Source of the DNA: Promethearchaeota archaeon
GTDB lineage: Archaea; Asgardarchaeota; Lokiarchaeia; Sigyniarchaeales; SOKP01
Direction: 5' to 3'
DNA: 51,068 bases
Assembly (NCBI GenBank): GCA_016840085.1
Contig: JAEOTA010000049.1
Span: forward strand, 1-51,068
In this document: piece by piece, positions 12,149 to 32,593 of the stretch
Layout: each line of letters opens with the position of its first letter
Numbering within the stretch: the stretch's first letter is position 1
The notes under the pieces: model-generated
Told to the model about the DNA's origin: nothing
What the model saw: only the letters and a program-made list of their open reading frames with translations
Databases searched by the model: none
Program-made: the position numbers and the translations under genes

Positions 12149-12688
12149 TTAATTCTTCAACTCCTTTAGGAGTTGTTTTTCTAATCCTCCAGCTTTAAGA
12201 AGTTTTAAGAGTATCGGATGAATTTTTTTGCCAACATATTTTTTCCCAGTAGTTAAATTTGAAACTATTGCTTCTGGAAAATTTATTTCAATTTCATCTC
12301 CTAAGTTAAAATGCTTTGAAATTCCCTCAATTTCCAAAAGAGGGAGTCCACGTGCACAAGATGACCTATAAAATATTCTTGCAAATGACTCTGCTACAAT
12401 AGCAACAATACCTTTTTCCCGAAGGATTGTAGGGGCCGTTTCTCGACTTGAACCACAGCCAAAATTCTTTCCTGCTACAATAATATCCCCATCTTTAACT
12501 TCACTAGGAAATTTTTCATTGATTGTTTCACATGTATGTTCCAATGTCGCTTTTAAATTATCTAAGTATTGACCTGGAGAGATAGCATCTGTATCAACAT
12601 TATCTGGAAAAAGCCATATCTTTCCTTTAATAATATCTCTATATTCGTTAACTTTCTTACTTTTATCCATTACCATCTTCTTTATCAC
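12149..12688 (-). CDS. 3-isopropylmalate dehydratase/homoaconitase small subunit (LeuD/HacB family)
   Basis: DNVDTDAI, GKNFGCGSSRE, AESFARIFYR. Confidence 0.85.
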   Translation of the reverse strand: MIKKMVMDKSKKVNEYRDIIKGKIWLFPDNVDTDAISPGQYLDNLKATLEHTCETINEKFPSEVKDGDIIVAGKNFGCGSSRETAPTILREKGIVAIVAESFARIFYRSSCARGLPLLEIEGISKHFNLGDEIEINFPEAIVSNLTTGKKYVGKKIHPILLKLLKAGGLEKQLLKELKN

Positions 12689-12691
12689 CCA

Positions 12692-13966
12692 CTAAAAGTT
12701 CCTAGGATCTATAATTTCACCTGTTAATGCTGAAGCTGCTACAGTAGCAGGAGATCCAAGATATATTTCAGAAGAATTGCTCCCCATGCGACCTTTAAAA
12801 TTTCGATTTGAACTTGAAATACATCTCTCCCCAGGAGCAAGTACACCTCCATGTGCTCCAAAGCAGGCTCCACAATTGGGGTTTGTAATTATAGCTCCAG
12901 CATTAATTAACACTTCTGATATTCCGGATTTAGCTGCTTTTAACCAAATCTCTTGAGAAGCAGGGGTAACTATCATGCGAACATCTGGGTGTATTTTCTT
13001 CCCTTCTAATATTTTTGCAGCAATTTCAAGATCTTCTAATCTTCCATTTGTACATGAACCTAAAAAAGCTTGATTGATCTTAAGTCCTTTTACTTCTGTA
13101 ACAGGTTTTACATTATCTACTGTATGTGGACATGAAACTTGCGGCTCTAATTCAGATATATCTAGTTTATATATATTATCATAAACAGCATCAGGATCAG
13201 GCTTAATTAATTTAAAAGATTCATTTGTTCTTTCTTTTATCCAATCTATTACTTTTTGATCTGGAATACCAAATGCAAATTTCGCCCCTAATTCAAGTGC
13301 AAAGTTAGACATGGTCATTCTTGATGCAATGCTCAAATATTCCATGGTTTCTCCAGCGAATTCTATTGATTTATATCTGGCAACTTCAGCAGTATAATCT
13401 CCTGCTATTTTTATAATGATATCTTTGCTCATAACATTATAGGGTAGCTTACCAGTGATATTAAATTTAATAGTATGAGGTATCTTAAACCATAATTCTC
13501 CCTTTACATAGGCATAAAATAGATCTGTATTTCCCACACCGCAACTTGCTGCGTTGAATGCACCATATGTGGTTGTATGGCTATCTCCACCTACTATTAG
13601 CATTCCAGGTTTTATATGTCCTTTTTCAGGCAAAACTTGATGACAAATACCTTCTCTGATATCGTAAAAGTTGGTGATTCCCTGCTTTTTGACAAATTTA
13701 CGAATCATATCATGTATCATAGCCCATCTTTCGGTTGGAGCAGGATTATAATGATCAAATAATATAACAATTTTATTAGGGTCAAAAACTTTTCTCTTCC
13801 TTGCGGGCTTTATCTTATTAAAATCTAAAGCAACTTTTGCTGTACCAAAATGGCTCATTACCAGATCAAGCTTTGCATTTATAATATTACCAGGTTTAAT
13901 ATCACTTTCTGAAAGATTGTGTTCTGATAAAATCTTTTCTGCTATAGTTTTACCCGACATCTTCAA
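12692..13966 (-). CDS. 3-isopropylmalate dehydratase/homoaconitase large subunit (LeuC/HacA family)
   Basis: GICHQV, DSHTTTYGA, GSCTNGR, CGACFG, NRNFKGRMG. Confidence 0.9.
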   Translation of the reverse strand: MKMSGKTIAEKILSEHNLSESDIKPGNIINAKLDLVMSHFGTAKVALDFNKIKPARKRKVFDPNKIVILFDHYNPAPTERWAMIHDMIRKFVKKQGITNFYDIREGICHQVLPEKGHIKPGMLIVGGDSHTTTYGAFNAASCGVGNTDLFYAYVKGELWFKIPHTIKFNITGKLPYNVMSKDIIIKIAGDYTAEVARYKSIEFAGETMEYLSIASRMTMSNFALELGAKFAFGIPDQKVIDWIKERTNESFKLIKPDPDAVYDNIYKLDISELEPQVSCPHTVDNVKPVTEVKGLKINQAFLGSCTNGRLEDLEIAAKILEGKKIHPDVRMIVTPASQEIWLKAAKSGISEVLINAGAIITNPNCGACFGAHGGVLAPGERCISSSNRNFKGRMGSNSSEIYLGSPATVAASALTGEIIDPRNF

Positions 13967-14009
13967 TATCTTAAAATAATATTTTATAAAAAAGATAAAC
14001 TAATAAAAA

Positions 14010-15452
14010 CTACATTAAATGAGTTCTAGCAATTTTATCCAATTCTTTTTGAAGTGATGCATCAATAGGTTTTATAGGGGATTTATCTAACATTTTTGAA
14101 GCTAATTCTTTTGCTCTTTTTCTAGCGGATTTTGAGCCTAATGCTTTCCATGAATCTCGAGTCATTCTATCTATAATAATGCTCGGAAAGAATAATTCTT
14201 TTCTAAAATATTTTAGAGTAGAAGGATGGGATAATAATTCTTCCTTATCTCCATAATCCTTCAAAATTTCTGAAGCATATGGAGTTCCATAATCCTCAAT
14301 ACCTTCTAAAAGTCTTTTAACCATTCCTATTATTTCATTATCAATTATTAATTTTTCAATACTTTGAGTTGATTCAAAGTCAAGCATACCTGGACCTGAA
14401 ACCATATTAATTCCCCCTAAACCAGCTAATAATGCCCCCATTCCAGCTTCAAGACCAGCTTGACTATCAGGGATCTTTGAATCACTTAAAGACATATATG
14501 CGTGTGTAGGTAAATTCAAAAATTTTCCAATTTCAATATCACCTAGATTAATCATCATTGTTTCTATTGCGCCCATTGGTGTAGTTCCTTGTTTCATATC
14601 AAATACTGCTGGAGAACCACCCCATATTAACGGAGCACCTCGTTTTGTTAATTGAACAATAACAACTCCCGCAAGACATTCAGCACAATGTTGAGTAATT
14701 GATCCAATTAAGGTTATTGGAGCATTTGCGCCAGCTAATGGCATTGATACAAATTCAGAGGGGATCATACTTTTAGCAGCGTCTATTAATGATTGAGTTG
14801 TCAGGTCTGACCATTTTAAAGGAGGACTGGGACACGCATCAAATATTGCTAAGGGTTTCTGGGCAAGATCATCTTCAGAATTCCTGCAAGCTAGAAGGAT
14901 TTCACGCATGATTGAGAAGCTTTCCTTCCGAAATGTTCCTGTTACTATAGGTTTATAACAATTTGATAATGCTAAATATAATCTATGCCAATCTTGGGCA
15001 TCTTTTGGCACGTCTTGGTATATTAATGCTGTACTTTGAGCTTCTATATACTTCAATTGTTCTACTATCTTAGAAAATTGTATAAAATCTTTTGACAAAC
15101 CCTCTCTTATTTCTCCCGTGTTTTCATCAAGTATGAAAATAGCAGCAGACCCGGGATCAAAGTGGACCTGATCCTCTTCTAAAGTAATGTGTTCATTCCC
15201 TTCCCGATCAAATAGAGTGATTTTATTGGGAACTGAACCCAAACATTTATCTACCAAATCTGATGGTATATAATAACGCAAATCTTTATGATTTAAGCCA
15301 TGTTGATTAAAAATATCGGTTGCTTCTTTGTTTTCAATGAAGATACCTTGAGTTTCTAATATTGATTTCGCTTCTTCAAGAATTAATTTCTTATGTTCTT
15401 TATCTAATATTTGAATTTTTGGTCTAATTATAGTCATATATAAATCCTCCAT
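14010..15452 (-). CDS. MttB-superfamily (trimethylamine/quaternary amine) corrinoid methyltransferase, non-pyrrolysine
   Basis: SPPLKW, PLAGANAPITLIGS, DSKIPDSQAGLE, GMLDFE...IDNEI. No in-frame amber codon. Confidence 0.85.
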   Translation of the reverse strand: MEDLYMTIIRPKIQILDKEHKKLILEEAKSILETQGIFIENKEATDIFNQHGLNHKDLRYYIPSDLVDKCLGSVPNKITLFDREGNEHITLEEDQVHFDPGSAAIFILDENTGEIREGLSKDFIQFSKIVEQLKYIEAQSTALIYQDVPKDAQDWHRLYLALSNCYKPIVTGTFRKESFSIMREILLACRNSEDDLAQKPLAIFDACPSPPLKWSDLTTQSLIDAAKSMIPSEFVSMPLAGANAPITLIGSITQHCAECLAGVVIVQLTKRGAPLIWGGSPAVFDMKQGTTPMGAIETMMINLGDIEIGKFLNLPTHAYMSLSDSKIPDSQAGLEAGMGALLAGLGGINMVSGPGMLDFESTQSIEKLIIDNEIIGMVKRLLEGIEDYGTPYASEILKDYGDKEELLSHPSTLKYFRKELFFPSIIIDRMTRDSWKALGSKSARKRAKELASKMLDKSPIKPIDASLQKELDKIARTHLM

Positions 15453-16330
15453 TAAAGTGAATCTATTATTTTACGAATCTCATATATAGTTTTCGGAGAT
15501 GTACCACAACACCCTCCGACAATTTTCGCGCCTAACTTTATCATTTCATGAATATCTTTAACAAAATCTTCTATAGGTTGTTCATATGAAGTTGTAAGAC
15601 CTTCCAATCTTGGTTTTCCGGCATTTGGTTTAACTGAAAGGGGTTTATTAGTTAGTTCAATAGCTTGTTTTAATAATTCAAGCATTTCATTTGAACCTAA
15701 TGTACAATTTGTTCCAATAACATCTACATTTTCATTCTCCAATAATCTAATACACTTCTCCAATGAATCTCCCATAATTGTAAAAAATCCTCTTTTAGTT
15801 TTATTGTAGGTTATTGAAGCAATAATAGACTTATTAGAAATATCTTTTATCGCTCTTACTGCCGTTAACATTTCTTCAATATCAGAAATAGTTTCAATAT
15901 GCCAAAGATCAATCCCATTTTCTAATAATTTTGCTTGAGCAGAAAAACTTAAATACCAATCTTCACTCGAAGCATTCCCCACAGGAGGTCTAAATTCTCC
16001 AGTTGGTCCAATATCTCCAACAATGAGACGACCAGGAGGGCAAGTTTTTTTTATATTATCTAAAGCATTCTCAATTATTTCTTTAATTCGATCTTCAAGG
16101 TCGTGACGCTTCAAGTTTAATGGTGTTGCACCAAAAGTATTTGTTTGGCACATATCTGAACCTGCATCATAGTAAGACTTATGAATTTCAACAATAGTAT
16201 CTGATTTTTCGATATTTAACATATCTGGAACTTTTCCTGGTTCCAAACCTCGTTTAATTAATTCACTACCCATAGCCCCATCAAACAGGATAATCTTCGA
16301 ATCATCATCTAGCCAATTTTGAAATGTCAA
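15452..16330 (-). CDS. Homocysteine S-methyltransferase domain protein (stand-alone MetH N-terminal module)
   Basis: DGAMGSEL, TNTFG, GTNC, PNAGKP, GGCCGTSP Zn ligands. Confidence 0.9.
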   Translation of the reverse strand: MTFQNWLDDDSKIILFDGAMGSELIKRGLEPGKVPDMLNIEKSDTIVEIHKSYYDAGSDMCQTNTFGATPLNLKRHDLEDRIKEIIENALDNIKKTCPPGRLIVGDIGPTGEFRPPVGNASSEDWYLSFSAQAKLLENGIDLWHIETISDIEEMLTAVRAIKDISNKSIIASITYNKTKRGFFTIMGDSLEKCIRLLENENVDVIGTNCTLGSNEMLELLKQAIELTNKPLSVKPNAGKPRLEGLTTSYEQPIEDFVKDIHEMIKLGAKIVGGCCGTSPKTIYEIRKIIDSL

Positions 16331-16352
16331 AACTAATATCCACTCTCCAAAT

Positions 16353-17000
16353 TTATTTTTCTAGTAGTGATTTAACTAGTTTAACAGCTTCCACTGCGTT
16401 GCCAGCAAAACCATCGGCATCACATTCTTCAACCCAAGAATTTGTAACAGGTGCTCCCCCAAGAATAACTTTAAATCGATTAGTCAATTTTTTCTCCTTT
16501 AAAATATCAATTATTTTTTTCTGGCCAATCATAGTAGTTGTTAAAAGTGCAGAAATTCCAATAACATCAGCATCTTTTTCAATTGCCACATCAATAATTT
16601 TCTCTGCAGGCACATCTGCCCCTAAATCATAAACCTCAAATCCATATGCTCTAAGCATCGTACTAACAATAGTCTTTCCTATAGAATGAATATCACCTTC
16701 TATTGTTGCAATTACAACCGTACCTAATGATAATTTATCTTTCCCGCTCTGAAGATGAGGAATGAGAATATCCAAACAATTCTGCATGATTTGTGCCCCT
16801 AGCATTAATTCTGGTAAAAAGTATTCACCTTCTTCCCATAATTCTCCAACTTTTCGTATTCCAGCTGCAAAACCTTGTTCAATAACTTTAAGTAAATTCA
16901 GTTTTTCTTTTATTGCTTTTTTTGCTAATTCAATTGCTTTATCTTCATCCAAATCGACTATAGCTTCAGTCATTTCTTTAAAAATTTGGTTATTGGACAA
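16353..17000 (-). CDS. Corrinoid (cobalamin-binding) methyl-carrier protein, MttC/MtbC-like
   Basis: DIHSIGK B12-binding motif, SALLTTTM, GGAP. Confidence 0.9.
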   Translation of the reverse strand: MSNNQIFKEMTEAIVDLDEDKAIELAKKAIKEKLNLLKVIEQGFAAGIRKVGELWEEGEYFLPELMLGAQIMQNCLDILIPHLQSGKDKLSLGTVVIATIEGDIHSIGKTIVSTMLRAYGFEVYDLGADVPAEKIIDVAIEKDADVIGISALLTTTMIGQKKIIDILKEKKLTNRFKVILGGAPVTNSWVEECDADGFAGNAVEAVKLVKSLLEK

Positions 17001-17524: not shown

Positions 17525-17808
17525 AATAATTATAACAACTCTATTTTTTTTAATAATTTTTTCCTCTTGCTAAAATATCCCATTTGTATTAAATCAAGAG
17601 CATTTGATTATTTAAATATAAATGATGGTTAAAATAAAAGAGATATCATTTCCTCCTTAAAAAAAATAAAAATTAAAATCCTTTTCATTGATGTAATGAA
17701 TAAAATAACTTCTATTATTATCATACTTTAATATAAAAATAGAAAATAATATTTGTTTTCATTCTTATTTAATTGTAATTATAGTTTTAAAAAAATACAA
17801 GTGATTTA

Positions 17809-18123
17809 ATGCCCAAGAAATTTTCAAAAGAGCCACTCAAAGGAATGAAGGACTATTATCCTTCAGATTTAAGAATAGAAAATTGGATTATTGATACAAT
17901 AAGAGATGTTGCAGAGAGATATGGTTATGAAGAATATGAAACTCCACAATTAGAACCAATTGAAATTTTTGCTGCTAAGTCTTCTGATGAATTAATTAAT
18001 GAACAATCATTTATTATAGAAAAAAAAAAAGGAGAGAGACTTTTATTAATCCCCGAGCTAACGCCCTCCTTAGCTCGAATGGTTGCGAAAAAAAGTCAAG
18101 AACTTAAAAAAACCATTTTATGA
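17809..18123 (+). pseudogene. hisS: Truncated, diverged 5' copy of histidyl-tRNA synthetase (~100 codons)
   Basis: Collinear with the first ~100 aa of the protein at 27336. Similarity stops after ELTPSLARMVAKKSQELKK. The upstream leader/RBS (AAGTGATTT) is also duplicated. Confidence 0.9.
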
Positions 18124-18174: not shown

Positions 18175-19641
18175 CTATGGAAGATTTTTGGAGGTTTTAA
18201 TAGGGTAATAATAATCATATATTTTTCCTAATATGTCAGAGAGATTTAACCCATAAGATTTTAATAATTTGATAATATCTGAATTTTTACTCTTTTTATG
18301 AGCAATCATTATTCTAAGAAGATTTACATCCTTAAATCTTTCTGTAAATTCATTAGAATTCTTAAAATTTGAGAAGTATTTTTGAAATATATCATCCCAG
18401 TTAGTTTGTTTACCAATGATTTTTGATATTGCTCCAAAATAAGAATATGATAATAATTCCATAATCATATGGTTATTCACAATCTTTTCATAATTCAATT
18501 CAATGAGATTTTTTGATAATCTATTAATTTTAGATTGATTACTTATATAATTGAATTTAATGCTCTTTCTTACATTTTTTGGAATTCTATTAAACCATAT
18601 TTTTTCAATTTGTTCATTTTCAATTAATTTTGTAAAAATAAAATTTTTTAATTCTGGCTCTAATATGTTTAGAATAAAAGACTGTAATTCAAAATATATT
18701 ATTTCGTCCCTTTTTTCAATTCTTAACGGTTCTGGAAAGATGTTATATAAGATTAAATTATAATTTAATATTGATTTTAAATATTCTCTGGTTTGAGGAA
18801 TTAATGTTTGGATATCATTCATTAAATCCTTTAAAAAAATGATCTCCTTCAAATGGATTTTTTTAGTAATTAATAATAAAAGATCGATTAATGAAGAAAT
18901 TATGTCATAATTCTTAAACAAATTAATTCTTTTATTTCCAAATCTAATATACTTCTTATCAATTAAATGGATTCTTTCAAATTTTTTTATAACTTCATTA
19001 ATTCTAAAATCCTTCTTCATCAAATCTAGATCATTTATTCTTGAGATTTTATTTTTTATTGAATCTATTAATTTATCATATAATAGCCCTATATTTTGTT
19101 TATAATCCCACCCCATTATTTTTTTGATATACTCCAGTCCCTTCTTAGTCAATAAGATTTTTGTATTTTTCATACCTTTTCTAATGAGATGACCTTGAAA
19201 ATTGTTTGTAAGATTATTGGCTATTTCAAAAGGTTGAGTCAATTTAGGATTAATTTTTTTTCTATGTATTGTAATAATTCCATTCTTCCAAAGAAATTGA
19301 AGAACTTTTATATAATCCTCTTTGAATAGATATATAATTGTTTGATACTTTATAGATTCGTGTTTAAAAAATTTCTTTAAAAGACTGTTAAGATTTATAT
19401 CTAAATCTTTAAGATCAAAATAATCTGGTATTGTATTGAAATAAACTTCTTCACTAATTAAAAATTGAGATTTAATTTTAATAAAATTTTTACACTCTTC
19501 GCAGAAATATCCTCTAATATCAAGAATCCTTACCCAAACAAAATCATTTTCTTTAATAATATCTTTTTTTTTATATTTTTGAAAAATAGAATTTTTAATT
19601 TTACATTTACAAATTTCTAAATTAGAATAACCATCATTAAT
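18175..19641 (-). CDS. Putative effector: Cys-rich N-terminus, winged-helix-like segment, C-terminal Swt1-like HEPN domain (~488 aa, probable ATT start)
   Basis: The frame is open about 135 codons upstream of the listed 19242 start (CKC...CEEC). The C-terminus reads LLSYSYFGAISKII...NWDDIFQKYF...LRIMIAH (R-x4-H at 18298-18315). Confidence 0.65.
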   Translation of the reverse strand: MNDGYSNLEICKCKIKNSIFQKYKKKDIIKENDFVWVRILDIRGYFCEECKNFIKIKSQFLISEEVYFNTIPDYFDLKDLDINLNSLLKKFFKHESIKYQTIIYLFKEDYIKVLQFLWKNGIITIHRKKINPKLTQPFEIANNLTNNFQGHLIRKGMKNTKILLTKKGLEYIKKIMGWDYKQNIGLLYDKLIDSIKNKISRINDLDLMKKDFRINEVIKKFERIHLIDKKYIRFGNKRINLFKNYDIISSLIDLLLLITKKIHLKEIIFLKDLMNDIQTLIPQTREYLKSILNYNLILYNIFPEPLRIEKRDEIIYFELQSFILNILEPELKNFIFTKLIENEQIEKIWFNRIPKNVRKSIKFNYISNQSKINRLSKNLIELNYEKIVNNHMIMELLSYSYFGAISKIIGKQTNWDDIFQKYFSNFKNSNEFTERFKDVNLLRIMIAHKKSKNSDIIKLLKSYGLNLSDILGKIYDYYYPIKTSKNLP

Positions 19642-22511
19642 TAAATTGAATCACCGTTTCTTTTTATCATTAAATAATAATCTATATCTTCCTCTTCTGA
19701 AAGCAACAATTTATTGTATAACTCAGAAGATATTTTACTGATCTTTTTGTCTATTATTGCTATTATCTCATCAAAAAATTCGGGTGGAATTGGATTGGGA
19801 GTTAATAAAATTATTTGAACGTCCATTTCACTAAATAGTTTTAAAATAAAAGAATTGTTTAAAGGATCCAATGTAGGGGTAGGTTCATCTAATACATAAA
19901 AATTCGTTGAGATTTTTAAAGTCTTTTGGATGGCTAATAAATACGCTAGCATTATTAAAGCTTTCTGACCTCCCGAATGTCTTGATGAGACCTTACCTTT
20001 TGAATTAAAAAACTTTAAAAAGTTCTTATCTCCCGGCTTCTTCATTCTAATATCAATACCATAAAATGTGTCATTATCCATTATAATATCGGGTGTTTCT
20101 TCAATAACCTTTAATACTCTTTTGCGATCTTCAAAACGATATAATTTTCTTAAGACCTTTCCATCATAGTCTATCCCTCTCAGAATTTTAGAAAAATTTT
20201 TTTGAATATCTTTTAGTATTTTTTCTATAAATTCTTTGAATTCAATTTGGTATTTTTTCAAATAAATAATTTTATTGTTTAAATCTTCATCTGCTTTAAG
20301 TAGTTTCTTTAATATCGTATGATATGCATCATTTTTTAGCTCATATTCTTTAACTGCATCATAATTAATTATTCCTATTTCTTTTAATTCTATATTTAAT
20401 TCACTCAAAAACTCCTTTAGTATATTAATTTCTCTTGGTTCTAAAAATTTCAAAATAAGGTCTTTTTTCTCTTTTTCAAGTTGTTCTTTTTTATTATTTA
20501 GATTAGTGAAATCTTTTTGAAATTGATTTAATTTATTAAAAAAACTTTTAACTAACTCAGAATTTTGCTCTAATAGTAGTTCTTTTTTTGCTTTTTCCTC
20601 TGTAAGGTTTTTTATGATTTTATCACTTTTATCTATTTCACCCTTTAAATTTGATATTTCTAATTGTAACGTTTTAATCTGTTCATCTAATTCTTTCTGA
20701 AGTTTTAAGGAATCACTGATCTTCAATTTTAGATTGGATTCTTCCTTTATTGCTTCTAATTGATTGATTTGTTTTGAAATATCCTCAATTGTACGTTTTA
20801 TTCCCTTAAATTCTTTAGTCAATTCATTAATTTCATTCCTGCATGTCTTTTTATTAATTTTTAGTCGGTTTATGAGATCTTCACGATTTATAGTTAATGT
20901 CAGCGGATTCAACAAAAAATATTTTACAGAATTATGATAATTTATAATACCTTCATCTAACTTAATATCCTGATTGTTAAAATCATTAATAACATTTTCA
21001 AGGAATTTCATTACTGAATAAGACTTGGTTTTAAACGAAATATTATGAAATTGTAAGTTGCTTTGATACCCTACTTTTTGAATATCTTGATGTATTAAAA
21101 AATCATTAAAATGGTTATTTTTGGCTAGATCTATTGCTTCTTGAAATTCATCTTGAGTTCCATATACTACTATAGTCCATCTAAAAGTATTGATATTTGA
21201 TTCAAACATCCTTATATCTTCAGATTGAGGCAAAGTCAAGTTAATTGCTTTATTTAATGATAATGCATTAATTAGTAAATCTGATTTAATTCCTTTTTTT
21301 TCTAATATCTTTAAGAATTTTTGTGACTCTTCAGGACCAATGGATTTCCCCTTTTCTAATATTTTTAAATCCCTATCAAAAGATTTCATTAAATCCTTTT
21401 TTTTTTCTATTTTAGTGTTTAATGTGAGATATTGTTCTTCAAGATTTTCTTTTTTTCTTATTATTTGTTCTGGGTCAATCTTTTTTAATCTGTTGATCTC
21501 TTCTAGTTGTTTGGAATAATCTCTAAACGATTTTGTTTCTCTTTCCAAATTATTTTCTATTTTAAATAATTGTTTATTAAATTCCTTTTCATTGTTCCTA
21601 AGTTCTATATTATGATTTTCCATCTGTTGTAAAGAATTAAGAAGCAGGTCTAATGATTCTGATAATTCTTTGTTTTTAATTTTTATTTTATTGAACTTAT
21701 AAGTAGTCTCTTCAATTGATTTTTCATTTTCTCTAACTTCACGACATATATTTTTATACTGACTTGAAACTACTTCATCTTGTAATTGTTTAATTTTTAG
21801 ATTTAATTCTTGAAACTTTTTATCTTTATCATATTCTTTCTTTAAATTATCAACCTCTAATTTTAATTTGTTCATTTCTCCATATAACTGATCATATGAC
21901 TTTTGTGAATCATAATATGATTCTTGTGCATTATCCAAATTATCTCTAATTTCTTTAATGTCTAAAATATCCTCTAAAGCTTCTAAAAGACCAATTGGAC
22001 CTCTTTCTAATAAGGAAATTGTTTTGTTTTGCTCCAAAAATAGGAAAGGATTGTCAGGATTTATTGAACAATTGCTTAATGCTTCTCTTAATGCTTTCTT
22101 TTTCCAATTACGACCATTTACAAAGTATTTGACGGCACCAGATGGATTGATTATTGTTCTGATATTTATCTCATCCATCTCATTATCAATAATATAGAAT
22201 GGTCTTACTCCATCTTCCTTTTCATTATTAAGTATAATTTTAATTTCAGCATTTAGGTTTTTCTGCAATTCATCAGAATCAATATTTTCTTCTGTTTGTG
22301 GATAATGGATCACTCCATTTTCAGATCTTACCCCCATTTCTCTGGGTATATCTCCTGTTAATCCAATTTTTATAGCTAACCATAAAGAAGTTTTCCCCTT
22401 TCCATTATTTGCTATAACTTGTGTAAATCCTCCTCCAAATTCAAAATCTCTTGGACTTTCATCAAAAAGTCTAAAATTCTTTATTATTACTCTTTTAATT
22501 ATCTGTTTGAT
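19641..22511 (-). CDS. SMC-family ATPase, SMC5/6- or JetC-like (~956 aa, probable ATC/ATA/ATT start)
   Basis: The upstream in-frame extension contains IKNFRLF and Walker A ANNGKGKTS. Q-loop NPFLFLEQNK, long coiled coils around a central hinge-like region, signature SGGQK, Walker B/D-loop YVLDEPTPTLD. Confidence 0.9.
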   Translation of the reverse strand: MKQIIKRVIIKNFRLFDESPRDFEFGGGFTQVIANNGKGKTSLWLAIKIGLTGDIPREMGVRSENGVIHYPQTEENIDSDELQKNLNAEIKIILNNEKEDGVRPFYIIDNEMDEINIRTIINPSGAVKYFVNGRNWKKKALREALSNCSINPDNPFLFLEQNKTISLLERGPIGLLEALEDILDIKEIRDNLDNAQESYYDSQKSYDQLYGEMNKLKLEVDNLKKEYDKDKKFQELNLKIKQLQDEVVSSQYKNICREVRENEKSIEETTYKFNKIKIKNKELSESLDLLLNSLQQMENHNIELRNNEKEFNKQLFKIENNLERETKSFRDYSKQLEEINRLKKIDPEQIIRKKENLEEQYLTLNTKIEKKKDLMKSFDRDLKILEKGKSIGPEESQKFLKILEKKGIKSDLLINALSLNKAINLTLPQSEDIRMFESNINTFRWTIVVYGTQDEFQEAIDLAKNNHFNDFLIHQDIQKVGYQSNLQFHNISFKTKSYSVMKFLENVINDFNNQDIKLDEGIINYHNSVKYFLLNPLTLTINREDLINRLKINKKTCRNEINELTKEFKGIKRTIEDISKQINQLEAIKEESNLKLKISDSLKLQKELDEQIKTLQLEISNLKGEIDKSDKIIKNLTEEKAKKELLLEQNSELVKSFFNKLNQFQKDFTNLNNKKEQLEKEKKDLILKFLEPREINILKEFLSELNIELKEIGIINYDAVKEYELKNDAYHTILKKLLKADEDLNNKIIYLKKYQIEFKEFIEKILKDIQKNFSKILRGIDYDGKVLRKLYRFEDRKRVLKVIEETPDIIMDNDTFYGIDIRMKKPGDKNFLKFFNSKGKVSSRHSGGQKALIMLAYLLAIQKTLKISTNFYVLDEPTPTLDPLNNSFILKLFSEMDVQIILLTPNPIPPEFFDEIIAIIDKKISKISSELYNKLLLSEEEDIDYYLMIKRNGDSI

Positions 22512-23100
22512 TTATCTCACCTTTTTCATTTTTTAATTCACTCTCAACTTCTTCAATGTTTTTTATAAAAAATTCTGTAAAAGCTTTTAGTTCAGGACTG
22601 TTTTGTAATCGCCATCCTATATCTAGAAACTTTTTTCCTTGTATTCTTATAAAACCTAATTTCTCTAAACTTTCTAAATCTCTATTTGAATATTCAATCC
22701 CATATTTATCTTTTAATTCAATTCTTATTTTTTCTTTGGAAATCGGGTGATCTTTCCCTTCAGAAATGAAAATTGATAATATTCTCGATAAAATTTCTTT
22801 TTGATTCTTTGTAAGAACTTGAAATTTCTTAGTTAAATTGTAATTATTCAATTGAATGAAAAAATCATTACTAGGAACGATGTAGGCTATATTTTGAATT
22901 GCATTTTCTCTTAACTCAATTCCAAGATTAATTAATAATTTTCTTGCTTCCTCTAGAAGTGTTATATTATCTGATCCAAAAATATTAGCAAAAATTGCGA
23001 TAGGGATTCCTTTACCTCCACTGAAGATTAAACATCTAATAATAAATTTTAAATCCTCTCCAATTACTTCATTATTAAAATTATTAATTTTACATTTCAC
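22495..23100 (-). CDS. Tandem winged-helix KITE-like subunit (JetB/MksE/ScpB/Nse1-3-like)
   Basis: About 200 aa with a C-terminal wH pattern (LESLEKLGFIRIQG...IGWR). Overlaps both neighbours and lies directly upstream of the SMC gene. Confidence 0.55.
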   Translation of the reverse strand: MKCKINNFNNEVIGEDLKFIIRCLIFSGGKGIPIAIFANIFGSDNITLLEEARKLLINLGIELRENAIQNIAYIVPSNDFFIQLNNYNLTKKFQVLTKNQKEILSRILSIFISEGKDHPISKEKIRIELKDKYGIEYSNRDLESLEKLGFIRIQGKKFLDIGWRLQNSPELKAFTEFFIKNIEEVESELKNEKGEINQTDN

Positions 23101-24517
23101 CCTTCTGAAGATATATAATACTTTCTTTTATCTTAAAATTTTTCAATTCTTTTGATTTTCGCAAGGGAATACAATTGATTTTATATTTATCGATAATTGT
23201 TGGGATACAAGAGACGAGATCTCCTGTGGTATTCCAATTTAAATTCCAATCTTTAATAATATTTGATAAATAAACTTGACCTTTTTCCAACTTATAAATT
23301 CTTTTCGCGAAAATTTTATAGGAAGGAATAAACTTTTCAATAGTTTCTGAAGCTTCTAACAATGATAAATTTTGGGTTTGGATTGAATTTTCATAATTTT
23401 CAGGAGGTTCTTTATTCTCAGAATCATTTTCACCTAAAACTTGAATCATCTCTGATGATGAAGCAGGCAGTATCGAAGTAGAAGCAAAATGATCAAAAAA
23501 ATTTTCTAACTGCATCCAATTATTACCTTTAAAAAGATTTAAACAAGATTTCATTCTTTTTGAATAGAAACCTCGTTCTATTAAAGATAAATTTTGTTTC
23601 ATCAAGAATTTTGAAGCTTCATGAAATCTTGAAAATTCATATGAAAGTTTTGATTTGGTCTTGAGAAGAATTTGCTGAATATGTGGTTGGTCTTCATACT
23701 TTTCTGTAATAATATCAAATTCTTTAATAATTTGATCAAATTTATCTATATAATCCAACCAATCTAAAACTTCTTCTTTCTCTATACTATCTCTTACTAT
23801 TCCTTGTATCAAAAATCCCAGTTGTTGAACGTGTTGATAAGACCTAATATCTAATCCTTTTTCCTCATAAACAGCATGCATCAGAATAGCACGTGATATC
23901 TGTTCTAGAAGATCGGGTTGTAAATCTTGTTCTAATCGTAATATAGCTGCGAAAAAAGTTGTACCAAATTTTGTTAAATGATACCTTATACCATTTCTTC
24001 TTATTAATCCGTAAACTTTTAATTTATACAAATCAGTCTTTAGATTTTTAGTAGAGTCTCCAAGTAAGTGAGAAAGTTTATCTTCTAATTGTGATCTTGT
24101 AAAAAAAGAATCAACATTCTGTTGAAATATATTCAAAATATTATAATAACGGAAATATGTACTCCTATTAGATACTAATCTAAATATTCCAAAAAGTCGT
24201 TCTAAATTTGCTGGTAGTTTTGAATAAATATTATATTTCTCTGTTAAAATCATGAAATTTTCAAATATATCTTTAGATCGTTCTAGGACTTCATGATATT
24301 CTTTTAAAAATTGTACAAAATTTGATGAAAAATTGAAACTTGATCTTAATTCTTCATGTTTATTTATTAAATATTGATAGAATTCTCTAGTTATCTTTTC
24401 CTTTTTTTGTGGAGACTGCTCCATTTCAATAAATTCAGCAAACAATATATTGAATTTTTTAAAAAAAAGATCAAAAATAATTTTAAGTTCACGATTAGTT
24501 ATAGCATTCTTAGTCAT
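23090..24517 (-). CDS. Kleisin-like subunit (JetA/MksF-like)
   Basis: wH segment (FFTRSQLEDKL...LYKLKVYGLI...YHLTKFG), helical bundle, acidic linker and short C-terminal domain. First gene of the SMC operon. Confidence 0.5.
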   Translation of the reverse strand: MTKNAITNRELKIIFDLFFKKFNILFAEFIEMEQSPQKKEKITREFYQYLINKHEELRSSFNFSSNFVQFLKEYHEVLERSKDIFENFMILTEKYNIYSKLPANLERLFGIFRLVSNRSTYFRYYNILNIFQQNVDSFFTRSQLEDKLSHLLGDSTKNLKTDLYKLKVYGLIRRNGIRYHLTKFGTTFFAAILRLEQDLQPDLLEQISRAILMHAVYEEKGLDIRSYQHVQQLGFLIQGIVRDSIEKEEVLDWLDYIDKFDQIIKEFDIITEKYEDQPHIQQILLKTKSKLSYEFSRFHEASKFLMKQNLSLIERGFYSKRMKSCLNLFKGNNWMQLENFFDHFASTSILPASSSEMIQVLGENDSENKEPPENYENSIQTQNLSLLEASETIEKFIPSYKIFAKRIYKLEKGQVYLSNIIKDWNLNWNTTGDLVSCIPTIIDKYKINCIPLRKSKELKNFKIKESIIYLQKGEM

Positions 24518-25244: not shown

Positions 25245-27122
25245 ATGATTGAAAAGAAAAGGGATGGAATTAAAGATAAAACTAATTATATGGAGTATGT
25301 AGGTTCAAAAAATCCAAATAATTTTAAGGCTGTTAGGAATAACGATCTTTCATGTGATAGGTTTACAATTCAGAGATATCCTTGTGAAATATCAGAGGAA
25401 TTTAAATATGTTAGCGAAAATCAGAATAATGATGAAAAATATGATAAACCCTTTATGTCTAGAGATTCAAGAATAGACCGCAATAATTGTAAATATAATT
25501 CTTTATATGATGAAAATGTCCAGTTTAATAATTTAAAAGCAACATATCTAAAACTAAACGAAATTGGTGTTTTTCCTATTCGTAAATTCTGTGAAGAAGA
25601 TGTTAAATATTGGAAAATTTTATTTGAAAGCTATGGTAATTTTTCTAAAGTTGTCAAAAAATTTAGAGAACAGACTGGGAAAGTTGTCTCAGATTTTACA
25701 GTTAGGCGAAGACTAAAAGATCTTCTTACTCATAATTATGAAAACTGGGTTAAAAAATATCAATTATCTGGTAAATATTCATGGGAAGATGCTCGTTTAT
25801 GGAAGCAACTTTATGAATCATTGCATTCTTTTAAAAAAGTTGAGATTTTTATTAAAGAGAATGTCGATCCAAATGGACCATTTGAGAAGACAATTAGGGA
25901 GTATCTAAAAAAATACTTTAAGCTTATCTTAGGAGGAAATTATAATAAATGGCTAGAAAGATATCATAAAACTGAACCTTACAAATATAATGAAGAAGAT
26001 TATATTTATTGGAAAAAATTATATGAAAAATTAGGAAGTTTAAAAGGTGTAAAAGAACATTTAGTTAAGGAGTTAATTGATGGTGCTCCTGATCATTCTA
26101 CAATCAGAAATGGGTTGAGATCAATTTTAGGAAAGGAATATGAAATTTGGAAGAAAAAATTTTCAGAAAAACCATTTACAGAAAAAGAAATAATCGGTTG
26201 GAAAACTATATATGAAAAAGAGGGTTCTATTGGAAAGGTTTCAGAATTAACTGGTCATGATGTTAAAGCTATTAAGAAGCATTTCGGTAGGCTAATGGGA
26301 AAAGATTTTAATTGCTGGTATGACAAATACTATATCCATCATTCCACGATCTATACAGATTCTGATGTTTCTGATTGGAAATCTTTATTTGAAGAATTAG
26401 GGAGTTATCCTGCTGTAAGTAATGAAATTAGAGATATATTAGGGATTAATATTAGACCAAGCGTAATTCGAAGAAGAGTAAAAAAATATCTAGAAACAAA
26501 ATGCATAAATTATAATAATTGGTTAAATGAGTTTTCTCTGAGTGATAATATTGTAGATATTGGAAAGAAAATTCATCAGATAATTGAATATTATTTCATG
26601 TTAAACTTTAATAACACTGATATTTTTGCATTCTATGAAATAACACCATCTATAAATGCTGGACTTTCTAGAATTGATAATTCCATAATATATCCAAAAT
26701 CTATAGGAAAAAAAGTTTTTAATAAATTAATTATAAATATTGATTACTTATTCTCAACTAATCTTGCTCGATTATATCCTAAAATGTATAAGGGTTATCA
26801 TAGTGAAGATATGCTTTTATTAATTGTTATGCTTATTGATAAACCAAAAAATTATTCAATTCCCTTAGATGTGCCGTATAAAGAGAATATCAAATTAATT
26901 GATGTCAATACCTTCTTGAAAATTTTCGATTTTGAAGATTCTTTAAAAGAAAATTTTTTTTATGCTATTAGGTTGGCTAAAAAGGGCCCCTATAGTCTAA
27001 GTGCATTTAATGAATTAAAGGAAATAGCAAATTCCGCAAAAATAGAATTAAAACTCAATTTTGGTAATAGAAAAGACCAACAGTTAAGTTATAGCGATAT
27101 AATGAAAAAATATTCAATTTAA
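25245..27122 (+). CDS. Protein with five tandem HTH-like repeats and a C-terminal restriction-endonuclease-like domain
   Basis: Repeat consensus (Y/F)xxxDxxxWKxL(Y/F)ExxGS...V...IR......W occurs five times. The C-terminus reads GKKIHQIIE...E...RID...IDY...K..KGY. Confidence 0.6.
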   Translation: MIEKKRDGIKDKTNYMEYVGSKNPNNFKAVRNNDLSCDRFTIQRYPCEISEEFKYVSENQNNDEKYDKPFMSRDSRIDRNNCKYNSLYDENVQFNNLKATYLKLNEIGVFPIRKFCEEDVKYWKILFESYGNFSKVVKKFREQTGKVVSDFTVRRRLKDLLTHNYENWVKKYQLSGKYSWEDARLWKQLYESLHSFKKVEIFIKENVDPNGPFEKTIREYLKKYFKLILGGNYNKWLERYHKTEPYKYNEEDYIYWKKLYEKLGSLKGVKEHLVKELIDGAPDHSTIRNGLRSILGKEYEIWKKKFSEKPFTEKEIIGWKTIYEKEGSIGKVSELTGHDVKAIKKHFGRLMGKDFNCWYDKYYIHHSTIYTDSDVSDWKSLFEELGSYPAVSNEIRDILGINIRPSVIRRRVKKYLETKCINYNNWLNEFSLSDNIVDIGKKIHQIIEYYFMLNFNNTDIFAFYEITPSINAGLSRIDNSIIYPKSIGKKVFNKLIINIDYLFSTNLARLYPKMYKGYHSEDMLLLIVMLIDKPKNYSIPLDVPYKENIKLIDVNTFLKIFDFEDSLKENFFYAIRLAKKGPYSLSAFNELKEIANSAKIELKLNFGNRKDQQLSYSDIMKKYSI

Positions 27123-27335
27123 GAAATTATTATAGATTCTTTATCTTATTTTTTAATAAATTTTGCAAATAAAAAATTTACATATCACTAAAAATTTAGT
27201 TAAATCATCTTAAAATTTCATTTCAAATATAAAATATTTACAGATAATAAATTAAAACCTTGTTATTGAATGGAAAAAAATATTTGTTAACCTTCTTTTT
27301 AGAATTTAGTTTGTAATTAAAATAAATCAAGTGAT

Positions 27336-28685
27336 TTGATGTCAAAGAAGTTTTCGAAAGAACCCATTAGAGGTATGGACGATTATTACCCCGGTGATTT
27401 AAGAGAAGTAAATTGGATAATTGAAACGATAAGGGATGTAGTAGAAAGATATGGCTATGAAGAATATATGACCCCACAAATAGAACCTGTTGAAATTTTT
27501 GCAGCGAAATCTTCGGATGAATTAGTTAATGAACAATCATTTATTGTTGAGAAACAAGAAGGAGAAAGACTTATTTTGATACCAGAACTTACACCGTCCT
27601 TAGCTAGGATGGTTGCAAAAAAAAGTCAAGAATTAAAAAAACCTATCCGTTGGTTTTCTGTTCCAACTTGCTTTAGATACGAACGCCCCCAACGTGGGCG
27701 CCGACGGGCCTTTTTTCAACCGAACGTTGATATCTTAGGTGAGGAAAGCCTTTATGCGGATCTCGAAATATTTAACATAGTTGTGGATATATTTACTGAA
27801 TTTGGAGCTACAGCAGAACAATTTCAGATTTATTATAATAGTAGACGATTCATGGATTCAATTAGTAATTATTTGCTTGAAATAGACAAAAATAAGATTC
27901 CTTTAGTTTATAAGGCTTTAGATAAGTCAGATAAAATGGATGAGGGAGAATTTGAAAAATACTTAATTGATACATTTCAAGATGAGATAATCATCCAAGG
28001 AATTTTTAAATTAAAAGATGCCAAAAGTGTTGATGAATTATTAAGGAAATTTGATAATATCCCAGAAGAATTTTATAAATCTGAAGGATATCTAGAAATA
28101 ACTAATTTTACCAGACTATTAAAAGAAGCAAATCTTTCAAATTATTGTAATTTTTCTTCTGGGACAGTAAGAGGACTGGATTATTATACAGGAATAATTT
28201 ACGAAGTATTTGATACTGGAAAAGAAAATATTCGTTCAATCTTTGGAGGCGGAAGGTATGATGACCTTTTATCCTTGTTCTCAGATGATATAATAACTGG
28301 TACAGGATTTGGTATGGGAGTTTATACACTTTCTTTATTTTTAAAAACTTACAACTTAATTCCAGAAGAAATTCGAGAAAAAGATTATACTGACACAATT
28401 TATATCGCATCTATTAATGAAGAAGTTTCTAGTTATACCTTCAAAATAGCTAGAATTGTTCGCAATGAAGATTTTCCATGCTTAATTGATTACCGATTCA
28501 AAAACTTAAAAAACCAATTAAGTAGAGCAAATGAACTCGGTGTATTAATCACATTAATAATAGGACCGAAAGAAATGAACGAAAAGGAAGTTACTATTAG
28601 AAATATGAAGACTGAAGAGCAAAAAACCATTAAAAGAGATAATCTTATAGAAGAGATTTATAATATTATAGAAGAGTTTGGATAG
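27336..28685 (+). CDS. hisS: Histidine--tRNA ligase (start may be ATG 27339)
   Basis: RGMDD, PELTPSLAR, FRYERPQRGRRRAFFQ, VRGLDYYTG, GGGRYD, anticodon-binding domain. Confidence 0.97.
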   Translation: MMSKKFSKEPIRGMDDYYPGDLREVNWIIETIRDVVERYGYEEYMTPQIEPVEIFAAKSSDELVNEQSFIVEKQEGERLILIPELTPSLARMVAKKSQELKKPIRWFSVPTCFRYERPQRGRRRAFFQPNVDILGEESLYADLEIFNIVVDIFTEFGATAEQFQIYYNSRRFMDSISNYLLEIDKNKIPLVYKALDKSDKMDEGEFEKYLIDTFQDEIIIQGIFKLKDAKSVDELLRKFDNIPEEFYKSEGYLEITNFTRLLKEANLSNYCNFSSGTVRGLDYYTGIIYEVFDTGKENIRSIFGGGRYDDLLSLFSDDIITGTGFGMGVYTLSLFLKTYNLIPEEIREKDYTDTIYIASINEEVSSYTFKIARIVRNEDFPCLIDYRFKNLKNQLSRANELGVLITLIIGPKEMNEKEVTIRNMKTEEQKTIKRDNLIEEIYNIIEEFG

Positions 28686-29203: not shown

Positions 29204-32200
29204 TTATTCTTTTTTTTTCTTTTTTCTTGGTGTAACTACAAAATTAGGAACTCTGATAACAATAATTTTTGGTTTTTTAATATCTTCTCTCTCTTCTTCA
29301 TTCAAGACATAACCCTCCTTAAAATCAAAAAAATCAATTAAGAATTTATCAGGATCATAATAATTTACATTATCATAAATAATTAAAAGCCCTACATCCG
29401 CATTTCGAGTAGTACAATATTGAGATATTTGTCCAAGCCATTGATCAATAAATTCTTTCCAGTTTTTATCTTTTTTTTCTCTCATTTTAATCTCAATAGG
29501 GTAGTTCTTTAATAGTAAATCCATTCTATTATCTTGCACTTCTGATTCCTTTGTTATTTTATAGTCGAAGAATCTCCTATAATGTTCATAAAATCTATAT
29601 TGAAAATGTTTTTCGAGTTTAGTAATATCTAATTGATATTCCGCTTTTTTAACCATCCGATATATTGGATATTCCATAAAAGTTTCTATTAATTGTATAG
29701 TTCGAATAATCAATTCTTCAAAATCAAGATCTTTTTTTAATTTAGAAAATAACTCTGTTCCAAAAAAAGACTGTAATTTTTCCCAAATTTTGTCTGCTTT
29801 TTCTTTACTGGATGTTAAGTCTGTTAAAAATAACTCTCTAGAAATTACCAGCTTTATATATAATAAGTAATGAAAGATTCTACGAGACATTTCTTTCCTT
29901 TTAATAAATAATTTTTCCAATAATGGGATCTCATCTCTCATTTTTTTTGTTAATTGGACTTCCCAAAAATCAGATAATTTTTTTATATATTCGCCCAATA
30001 ATGCTTCAATATTCATAATATTTTTCTTATATAACTCTCTATTCCAATCTGTTTTTAAAGTAAGCTTTTGGGAAATTTTATCACTTAATTCTTTCAAATT
30101 AGTTATTCCAGACATCTCTTTCTTCAAATAATTACTTGTGCCTGTTTCTCCAAAAGATAATTCAACTATACTTTTTACTTTAGGATTTCCTTTTTCTTGT
30201 TTTGCGATTTTTGATTTTAATTCAGAAAATATTTCAAATTCAGGTAATAATAAATCCTCGAAAGAAGCAGTTTCTAAATATTTTTCAAAAATTTGATAGA
30301 AATTGATATCTTTAAAATCCTTATCCATTGAAATCCCAACATTCATTGTCATTTTATCTTCAATTTTACGAGCATATCGTTGTTTTATTTCATTTAATGG
30401 GCTATATTTTTCACTACTCTCTATTCTATGTATTCCATCATCATCAGATAGTAATTGATATATCATAATATGAAAGGGTTTTAGAAAATCTTCAATTAAG
30501 TTCTCCGCACCAGGATATTTATTATATTCAAGAAATTTTTTTAATGAATCAAATAATATCTTCCTTTGATTGTAATCTCTTATTTCTACTGATTCATAAT
30601 AAATTTTTTCTAAAATCTCATAATTTATATCCTCAGTCCTCTTAGCTTCCATTACGGCATCCCACATCCTTCTTAAAACATAATCGAATTTATTCTCATA
30701 ATCATCTTGAGGCATATCTTTTACTAATCGCCTATCAACTCCCTCTTCAATGAAGTTTCTTAATTTTTTTAATTCTTTAAATTCTTTAGAGGCAATCCCA
30801 ATTCTAGTGCTGCGAGTATATCGTGTCCAGTAAATCTTTTTTTTATTTTGTAGTTCAGTTAAAATTTCATCAATATAATTTTGAATATTATCAAAAGTAA
30901 GTAAAAAAGGTGTGTAATTTTGGGGAGCAACTGCTGAAAGTATCTTTAAAAAATGATTATTCGAGACTAATTTTAAAAAAACAGCATTTAATAGATATTT
31001 AAAATCAATATCACCAAATTTTGAAAAGATGTTTTCAATAATAACTGAACCTTCTTTCATATTTCTATAAAATTCACTAAATAACCTTTTTTCATCTAAA
31101 ATAATAATACCATTTAGCAAATTTTCCTGAAATATAGAAATGATGTGATCTTCAACTTTATAAGATAAATCTTTGAATTTTTCGTCAATGAATTGTACCA
31201 ATGGAATTTTAGTTCCTTGATATTCTAAAATGAAAGATTTAGAATCATTTTCAAAGATTTTCAATATTTTCCATAAAATTATTGTTAAATTTTTATTTTT
31301 AGCTATATCTATGCAATAATATTTGAATATTTCATTAAAATAATCTCTGCCTATTAAGAAGCCTAAAATTTGAAAGAAATCTTCATTGTAAATATATAAA
31401 TCGTCTTCAATTTCTTTATTTTTTAAATAAAATAATTCTTTTAAAATGGCGATGCACATATCATAATCCATTTTAAGGATTGGGTTTGAATTTATTATCT
31501 CTGCAAACATTATTCGATGATCAGTATGAATTTTTAACAGTTCTATATATTCAGTAATTTTATTTATATTGGTAGAAAAAGAGTTATACAATTTAGTGAA
31601 CGATTTAATAACAAAGAAGTTAAATTCACTTATTAAACTTAAAATATAATTTAAATCCTCTATTGTTATTATATAATTTTGAAAAAAATCAGTTTTAATT
31701 AAATTTTTTGAAAGATTCTCAAGTTTAGAATTATTTTTTTTTATTACATTCCATAATTCTTTATTATTTAAACCATAATGAGTTCTAAATAAAAATTTTA
31801 AAACAACATTATCCATTGATGTTAAATTGGCTACTCTTTGAGTAATTTTATGATAAAATTCCTTATAATCTCTATTATTTATTTCTTTCTCAAGGTTTTC
31901 AAGAAGTAATTGATAATGATTTTCAGTTAGAGAAATATGGTAATTTTTTAAAAAATTTTTCAATTCAAGAATGTATGTATAACCTTTATTTAAGAACTCC
32001 AATCTTATTTCAGAAGAATTTCTAAGTTTGTCAAAAAACATAAATTGCTTATTGAGAGCAATTGTCTGAGACATATTCGATTTATAAATTAATTTATCAA
32101 AATCATTATCTAATTTTTTAGGTAGAGCGTCTAATTCTGATTTAATTTTATTTATAGTCTTTTCTATATTCGATAAAGGTTTATAAATGACATCTAAATT

Positions 32201-32593
32201 GAACTCCTTAAAAAATTTAATATTGAATATGACAGGAAAGAATTTATTTGAGTTATAATAGTAATGTAATAAAATAACAGAAAGAATTATTATAAAAAGA
32301 GATAAAATTAAAAATACCAAAAAGGAGAGATTTAAAGTTTGAATTAAAAGAATTATGCTTAAAACAAAAAAAAGTATTAATTGAGCAAAATTTTGAAGAA
32401 TAAAGATCTTTAGATGGTTTTTTGATTTAAAATTATCTGAGTGTAACCTATTTCTAAAGCTTTCTATATTTCTAATTTCGTTATGAATTTTCTTTATAAA
32501 AGAAACTTCTTGATTTGGGTCAATTTTTTCTAATTGCTTAGTTATAGGATTAATATATATTTTGGTATTTGGATTGAAATCTTCATCATTCAT
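29204..32593 (-). CDS. Large protein with two N-terminal TM helices and a C-terminal PD-(D/E)XK nuclease domain
   Basis: Hydrophobic hairpin at about aa 63-110. The C-terminus reads EKHFQ...KESEVQDNRMDLL...IEIK...GQISQY...GLLIIYD. Confidence 0.7.
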   Translation of the reverse strand: MNDEDFNPNTKIYINPITKQLEKIDPNQEVSFIKKIHNEIRNIESFRNRLHSDNFKSKNHLKIFILQNFAQLILFFVLSIILLIQTLNLSFLVFLILSLFIIILSVILLHYYYNSNKFFPVIFNIKFFKEFNLDVIYKPLSNIEKTINKIKSELDALPKKLDNDFDKLIYKSNMSQTIALNKQFMFFDKLRNSSEIRLEFLNKGYTYILELKNFLKNYHISLTENHYQLLLENLEKEINNRDYKEFYHKITQRVANLTSMDNVVLKFLFRTHYGLNNKELWNVIKKNNSKLENLSKNLIKTDFFQNYIITIEDLNYILSLISEFNFFVIKSFTKLYNSFSTNINKITEYIELLKIHTDHRIMFAEIINSNPILKMDYDMCIAILKELFYLKNKEIEDDLYIYNEDFFQILGFLIGRDYFNEIFKYYCIDIAKNKNLTIILWKILKIFENDSKSFILEYQGTKIPLVQFIDEKFKDLSYKVEDHIISIFQENLLNGIIILDEKRLFSEFYRNMKEGSVIIENIFSKFGDIDFKYLLNAVFLKLVSNNHFLKILSAVAPQNYTPFLLTFDNIQNYIDEILTELQNKKKIYWTRYTRSTRIGIASKEFKELKKLRNFIEEGVDRRLVKDMPQDDYENKFDYVLRRMWDAVMEAKRTEDINYEILEKIYYESVEIRDYNQRKILFDSLKKFLEYNKYPGAENLIEDFLKPFHIMIYQLLSDDDGIHRIESSEKYSPLNEIKQRYARKIEDKMTMNVGISMDKDFKDINFYQIFEKYLETASFEDLLLPEFEIFSELKSKIAKQEKGNPKVKSIVELSFGETGTSNYLKKEMSGITNLKELSDKISQKLTLKTDWNRELYKKNIMNIEALLGEYIKKLSDFWEVQLTKKMRDEIPLLEKLFIKRKEMSRRIFHYLLYIKLVISRELFLTDLTSSKEKADKIWEKLQSFFGTELFSKLKKDLDFEELIIRTIQLIETFMEYPIYRMVKKAEYQLDITKLEKHFQYRFYEHYRRFFDYKITKESEVQDNRMDLLLKNYPIEIKMREKKDKNWKEFIDQWLGQISQYCTTRNADVGLLIIYDNVNYYDPDKFLIDFFDFKEGYVLNEEEREDIKKPKIIVIRVPNFVVTPRKKKKKE

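Follow-up and report, generated by a model that had tools for sequence, protein, structure and literature searches.

A rare, Wadjet-like SMC cassette of archaea with a predicted Swt1-like HEPN domain in place of the Toprim nuclease

Four minus-strand genes lie between positions 24517 and 18175 of the window, the whole 51,068-nucleotide stretch of Promethearchaeota archaeon DNA analysed here (contig JAEOTA010000049.1). Stop-to-stop frames confirmed that, as the first-pass annotation had proposed, they form a coupled series in which each gene abuts or overlaps the next. Gene 1 (23090–24517) encodes a 475-aa probable large kleisin of MukF/JetA type; gene 2 (22495–23100, or 22495–23127 from stop to stop) a KITE-like protein of about 195–200 aa with tandem winged helices; gene 3 (19641–22511) a 956-aa SMC ATPase whose arms are short and whose centre resembles a hinge; and gene 4 (18175–19650) a protein of about 488 aa (491 codons from stop to stop). 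Gene callers truncate genes 3 and 4 because their extended starts are not ATG, GTG or TTG, and the sole standard start of gene 2 is a GTG within the GGTGA motif that ends gene 1. Since homologs of genes 2–4 carry Met at the matching positions, we take the extended readings to be right. Genome-wide, 62 of 2369 long frames have no standard start in their first 40 codons, and in such frames of the host ATA or ATT most often follow a ribosome-binding-like GGTGA motif. This motif precedes the non-standard starts of genes 3 and 4, and perhaps that of gene 2 (window positions 22511, 19650 and 23100, respectively).

Together with a 625-aa passenger ORF (25245–27122, plus strand), the cassette sits between an orphan hisS 5′ part on the left (17737–18123, plus strand; upstream region and 104 codons) and an intact hisS on the right (27268–28685, plus strand). 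The two copies (17737–18123 versus 27268–27643) share 377 bp at 79% DNA identity and differ by 33 synonymous and 19 non-synonymous codons. Because the intact gene resembles another species more in its first 104 aa (93% identity to genome G062) than in the remainder (84%), the island would have arrived by replacing the hisS 5′ end: the first 104 codons of the intact gene appear to have come in with it, and the orphan part, whose identity to relatives matches that of the hisS 3′ part, is probably the host's original 5′ end. No integrase was found inside the island. A hisS fragment in genome G073 (L131) is cut at the same codon, and this may be a recurrent insertion site. The passenger ORF consists of repeated helical units and falls outside the conserved cassette; its C-terminal domain has two paralogs in the genome (C60 and C81), and the ORF as a whole gave no family match above threshold and was not detected beside the seven other cassettes tested. 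Elsewhere in the window, a 1129-aa ORF downstream of hisS (29204–32593) combines an N-terminal membrane segment with a C-terminal nuclease-like region (PD-(D/E)XK by eye), and positions 12149–17000 hold, by eye, ordinary metabolic genes: a corrinoid protein and homocysteine S-methyltransferase-like, trimethylamine methyltransferase-like and isopropylmalate dehydratase-like genes.

The identification of gene 3 as an SMC ATPase with intact Walker A, signature and Walker B was upheld by a Pfam SMC_N match (E 9e-22) and by the motifs themselves (Walker A, Q-loop LEQ, signature SGGQ and Walker B DE), which are invariant in alignment A8. Its relative P0016 shows a faint SMC_hinge and matches the JetC1 profile over the arm and hinge (E 6e-19), and the best structure matches of the SMC profile are Smc, SMC3, SMC2 and SMC5/6. 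ClsN-like proteins and a single SMC5/6-like row from Cryptosporidium joined the island SMCs in a first tree of the heads (97/88); in an enlarged tree with long branches, no outgroup (Rad50 and MukB absent), three JetC rows and one eukaryotic row, the island SMCs shared an open polytomy with the Asgard second SMC, ClsN-like proteins and canonical Smc, and JetC and bacterial look-alikes split from them at 99/97. Because the SMC head groups apart in this way, simple descent from a bacterial Toprim look-alike is not supported. The His-switch of the island SMCs is changed to Pro, as in the ClsN-like and SMC5/6-like rows and also in JetC type I. Sequence comparison would thus place the island SMC head outside JetC and in a polytomy with the Smc, ClsN-like and SMC5/6-like groups, with a possible link to SMC5/6 and to the origin of its antiviral function.

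For genes 1 and 2, the kleisin and KITE folds that had been claimed did emerge as the top matches, but below threshold. Gene 1 comprises an N-terminal helical extension, a winged helix at about residues 100–200, a helical bundle and a probable C-terminal winged helix, and its closest fold is MukF/JetA, at the top of the matches but weak. Gene 2 has faint ScpB matches; over residues 14–170, the profile of its family scores 17.7 bits with the KITE of a ClsN-like operon (best shuffle 11.8), and it barely matches the KITE of the host's own C19 operon (3.4 bits). When the kleisin profile was run across 221 Bacillota genomes, only trigger factor matched, a false match.

What does the fourth gene encode? 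The protein (P0004) is without a Pfam, NCBIfam or PADLOC match. From its N-terminus, it is composed of a Zn-knuckle β-hairpin whose CxxC cysteines (C47 and C50) are invariant in alignment A11, a winged helix (72–177), a helical arm and a C-terminal Swt1-like HEPN domain (about residues 315–470; 18232–18699, minus strand). An AlphaFold model recovers the long β-hairpin, winged helix and helical arm of the N-terminal part at pLDDT of about 60–75, and the winged helix is also backed by winged-helix matches; an Atlas feature search with residues 1–300 returned no match. Across the HEPN domain, the model (4-row alignment) is poor (pLDDT < 50) and gave nothing usable from Foldseek, so the HEPN call rests on profiles. 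A profile built from 16 independent, unrelated PF18731 matches in Lokiarchaeia scored 13–29 bits against the C-terminal domain in six members, with about 1200 shuffles at or below 4.2. HHalign aligned the domain to Swt1-like HEPN at 98.4% over 113 columns (E 4e-15), and ESM Atlas features for gene 4 gave HEPN_Swt1 clusters at 0.92. The L042 homolog matches PF18731 directly (E 5.6e-4) and also matches Swt1-family HEPN proteins on plasmids. Toprim is absent, with no DUF2220/DUF2399 match and no conserved DxD. These results bear out the original proposal that a HEPN stands in place of the Toprim: by its sequence, the gene-4 C-terminal domain is a Swt1-like HEPN and not a Toprim, with putative RNase activity. 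The gene-4 profile also matched a protein in G399, which is a separate HEPN protein with no cassette nearby.

The R443-x4-H448 motif (18298–18315, minus strand; RIMIAH in the window) is present in 9 of 9 complete fourth genes; neither R443 nor H448 varies in alignment A11 or in P0009, and an upstream glutamate, E328, is likewise constant in alignment A11. The polar residue, usually Asn, that is expected after the Arg is Ile in the window and three relatives. Asn (RN) occupies this position in five of the nine genes, all distant members, and Ile (RI) in the other four, so that the RI noticed in the window is real and common to a subclade (the window, P0008, P0009 and L037), the members of which are 34–40% identical to the window protein. 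Because almost all stand-alone Swt1-like HEPNs of Lokiarchaeia have RN, the window copy may be weak or inactive.

Ten distinct loci, the most divergent with about 22% SMC identity, keep the same order, likened from the outset to jetABCD, and gene 4 lies beside the SMC gene in every homologous locus found. Cassette loci include L003, L007 (G073), L011 (G006, Helarchaeota), L036, L037 and L039 and, at about 22% SMC identity, L042, L050 and L058 (G235, another Asgard class). A HEPN domain closes each of the nine fourth genes that are complete, and the tenth, truncated at a contig end, matches the family. With SMC and kleisin profiles, the cassette was detected in 4 of 400 Asgard genomes, many of these MAGs being incomplete. 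The SMC has a small family, with five close relatives among 1.84 billion representatives and, further off, one distant branch. Scanning collections of genomes, metagenomes and viruses for sequence patterns revealed no further family members, tblastn of plasmids with P0016 gave no match, and two candidate members, P0161 and P0215, were ordinary Smc genes.

Flanks differ at every locus. Neighbours are Tn7-like genes, a DNA methylase and AlbA_2 at L037, Tn7-like genes at L058, McrBC-like and DpnI genes at L042, a DNA methylase at L011, and HNH and archaeal TFIIB genes at L050. At L037 (10176–16002) and L058 (16410–18997), Tn7-like TnsA/TnsB and TniB-like genes and long repeat proteins adjoin the cassette, suggesting that these two cassettes are transposon cargo. 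The cassette is patchy, rare, mobile and defence-like in its distribution. It is probably not restricted to Asgard archaea: the distant L042 and L050 have unassigned hosts, and an archaeal TFIIB gene adjoins the cassette at L050.

The host, whose genome is Lokiarchaeial and of the same genus as a Promethearchaeia MAG, also has Smc (C85) and a second SMC (C19, 1160 aa), both widely conserved: Smc occurs in 46 of 46 near-complete Lokiarchaeia and the second SMC in many. C19 belongs to a separate SMC–kleisin–KITE operon with a small, 223-aa kleisin and no effector gene, and we infer that C19, not the island, is the published Asgard SMC5/6-related complex.

What could the cassette do? With somewhat better than even confidence, we read it from its genes and distribution as a mobile defence system of Wadjet architecture with an RNase-type HEPN output. 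By what is known of the family, the products of genes 1–3 would form a dimer-of-motors kleisin–KITE–SMC complex able to load on DNA and extrude loops, with motors that would stall in a special state on small circles or abnormal DNA such as a plasmid or an excised virus. Gene 4 would dock on the stalled motors via its winged-helix/helical arm, like the aCAP of JetD, and two HEPN domains would be brought into an active dimer that cuts RNA (tRNA, rRNA or transcripts). The outcome would be dormancy, death or invader silencing in place of DNA cleavage. A structure prediction of the N-terminal region of gene 4 together with the halves of the SMC head scored 0.00, which counts neither way.

Alternatively, gene 4 could clamp and not cut. 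The HEPN would then be chiefly a dimerisation module that bridges two motors through the arms, like the JetD Toprim dimer, and circular DNA would be trapped, silenced or mis-segregated, as eukaryotic SMC5/6 silences episomes. RNase activity would be missing or lost, at any rate in the RI subclade. That HEPN domains dimerise obligately and that the RN-to-RI change is fixed in four members both speak for a clamp, as does the restriction of extrachromosomal DNA by SMC5/6 (PMC10586767). However, the invariant R, H and E328 and the five distant members with a full RN-x3-H have the look of a catalytic site, and we consider a clamp rather unlikely. The islands and the Tn7-like neighbours could also point to selfish maintenance, in which the SMC trio, in the manner of MksBEF, compacts or segregates the element or the host chromosome and keeps gene 4, an addiction toxin, inactive, so that a cell losing the island dies; HEPN domains are indeed common toxins. 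This we judge decidedly improbable, because no MNT antitoxin or partition genes lie beside any cassette, the loci look chromosomal and stand among defence genes, and gene 4 has a large DNA-binding-like arm and is not a bare toxin.

Least probable, in our estimation, is a third housekeeping complex of condensin or SMC5/6 type that organises or repairs the chromosome and has gene 4 as an accessory subunit or RNA-processing partner (e.g., clearing R-loops or nascent RNA). The structure matches of the SMC profile, the resemblance of the KITE to that of the ClsN-type operon and the position of the head outside JetC would all suit such a role, but a complex present in 1% of Asgard genomes, in unrelated contexts and in a host that already has Smc and the C19 operon does not look like housekeeping.

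Beyond the preferred reading of an RNase-type defence system, a broader proposal is possible, though we hold it doubtful: the cassette might be a fourth, archaeal kind of loop-extruding immune SMC complex, derived from the Smc/ClsN/SMC5-6 side and not from JetC, in which DNA-shape sensing by kleisin–KITE–SMC switches on a HEPN RNase. If true, loop extrusion would here be coupled for the first time to RNA cleavage and abortive immunity, and this in archaeal relatives of eukaryotes. A conserved kleisin–KITE–SMC–HEPN unit breaks the split by which Wadjet equals Toprim and effector variety equals Lamassu, and it allows a test of whether the stalled loop-extrusion state is a general switch, able to drive an enzyme whose target is not the trapped DNA. 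With RN and RI forms both occurring in nature, active and possibly inactive effectors can be compared within the family. Because all but its ATPase is invisible to PADLOC, Pfam and NCBIfam, the cassette is missing from Asgard defence counts. In the literature searched, with few subscription papers in it, no Wadjet-type operon with a HEPN is described.

In Wadjet (JetABCD/MksBEFG/EptABCD, types I–III), JetA, JetB, JetC and JetD are a kleisin, a KITE protein, an SMC and a CAP-Toprim nuclease, and effector variety has been assigned to Lamassu, which has neither kleisin nor KITE (PMC10586767). The cassette shares with Wadjet the order kleisin–KITE–SMC–effector, a large kleisin probably of MukF type (by a weak fold match), a hinge SMC, a sporadic occurrence in defence contexts and a fourth gene with an N-terminal winged-helix/helical arm. 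It differs in that its effector is a Swt1-like HEPN, no cassette gene matches JetA, JetB or JetD in PADLOC, and its SMC is shorter (913–960 aa), with a head that groups apart from JetC. Because no Toprim was found, the cassette is not Wadjet as defined, though built alike. JetD docks on the JetC larynx via its aCAP arm (bioRxiv 10.1101/2023.11.03.565488). An Atlas fold search with gene 4 put JetD/DUF2399 clusters at rows 1 and 5 (TM 0.27 and 0.25), and the arm elements of gene 4 are collinear by eye with those of these JetDs; no sequence test of the N-terminus (HHalign and HMM) against JetD types I–III and two look-alike JetDs was significant, but such tests were no more successful in control comparisons of one known JetD type with another. 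The fold match, together with the Toprim end of the bacterial look-alike operon described next, hints at an effector swap on a JetD-like arm, a possibility that makes a good lead.

A bacterial operon (L124, 616–6763), which adjoins AbiEi/AbiEii, encodes proteins of 431, 268, 917 and 429 aa, the last a JetD_C/DUF2399 Toprim, and its SMC matches the cassette family profile over the arm and hinge (E 8e-38). Its gene sizes and order are near-identical to those of the cassette, and its JetD likewise opens with a Cys/CxxC hairpin before the winged helix; unlike the cassette, however, it ends in Toprim and its SMC head goes with JetC, and the arm similarity is not statistically significant. A remnant of an L124-type operon lies on a Variovorax plasmid (L126, 4072–6623), and SMCs of the L124-type family (P0061, P0082 and P0104) branch together next to types I and II of JetC. 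The L124-type operon may be a Wadjet type missed by current profiles.

Like the second SMC complex of TACK and Asgard archaea (SMC5/6-related, ClsN-like), the cassette is an archaeal SMC–kleisin–KITE operon with the His-switch changed to Pro and a KITE moderately similar to the ClsN type. In contrast, the published operons of that complex have three genes, are widespread and lack an effector (bioRxiv 10.1101/2024.01.07.573240). An SMC5/6-related archaeal complex would be expected to have an Nse4-like small kleisin and an Nse1/3-like KITE; the kleisin of the cassette is large and probably MukF-like. L123 (5001–9438) encodes a ClsN-like 928-aa SMC and, after it, a winged-helix protein of 384 aa and a KITE of 173 aa, which makes it a ClsN-type operon whose kleisin is large and possibly MukF-like.

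With Lamassu (LmuABC/DdmABC/ABC-3C), the cassette would have in common an SMC-superfamily DNA sensor tied to a non-Toprim, probably abortive effector. LmuB is a short, Rad50-like protein that often carries a zinc hook, and the LmuA effectors listed do not include HEPN (PMC10586767). Where LmuB has about 650 aa and is accompanied by LmuA and LmuC, the cassette has a 956-aa SMC with a hinge-like centre and two winged-helix partners, and LmuB matches to this SMC cover only generic ATPase and coiled-coil parts. RloC and PrrC use an ABC/SMC-like ATPase as a DNA sensor that activates a HEPN RNase; unlike in the cassette, their ATPase and HEPN lie in one polypeptide, with a Rad50-like zinc hook or none and without kleisin, KITE or hinge. 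The cassette may be a mosaic in which the SMC head and the KITE are of archaeal type, the kleisin is of MukF type and the arm is JetD-like.
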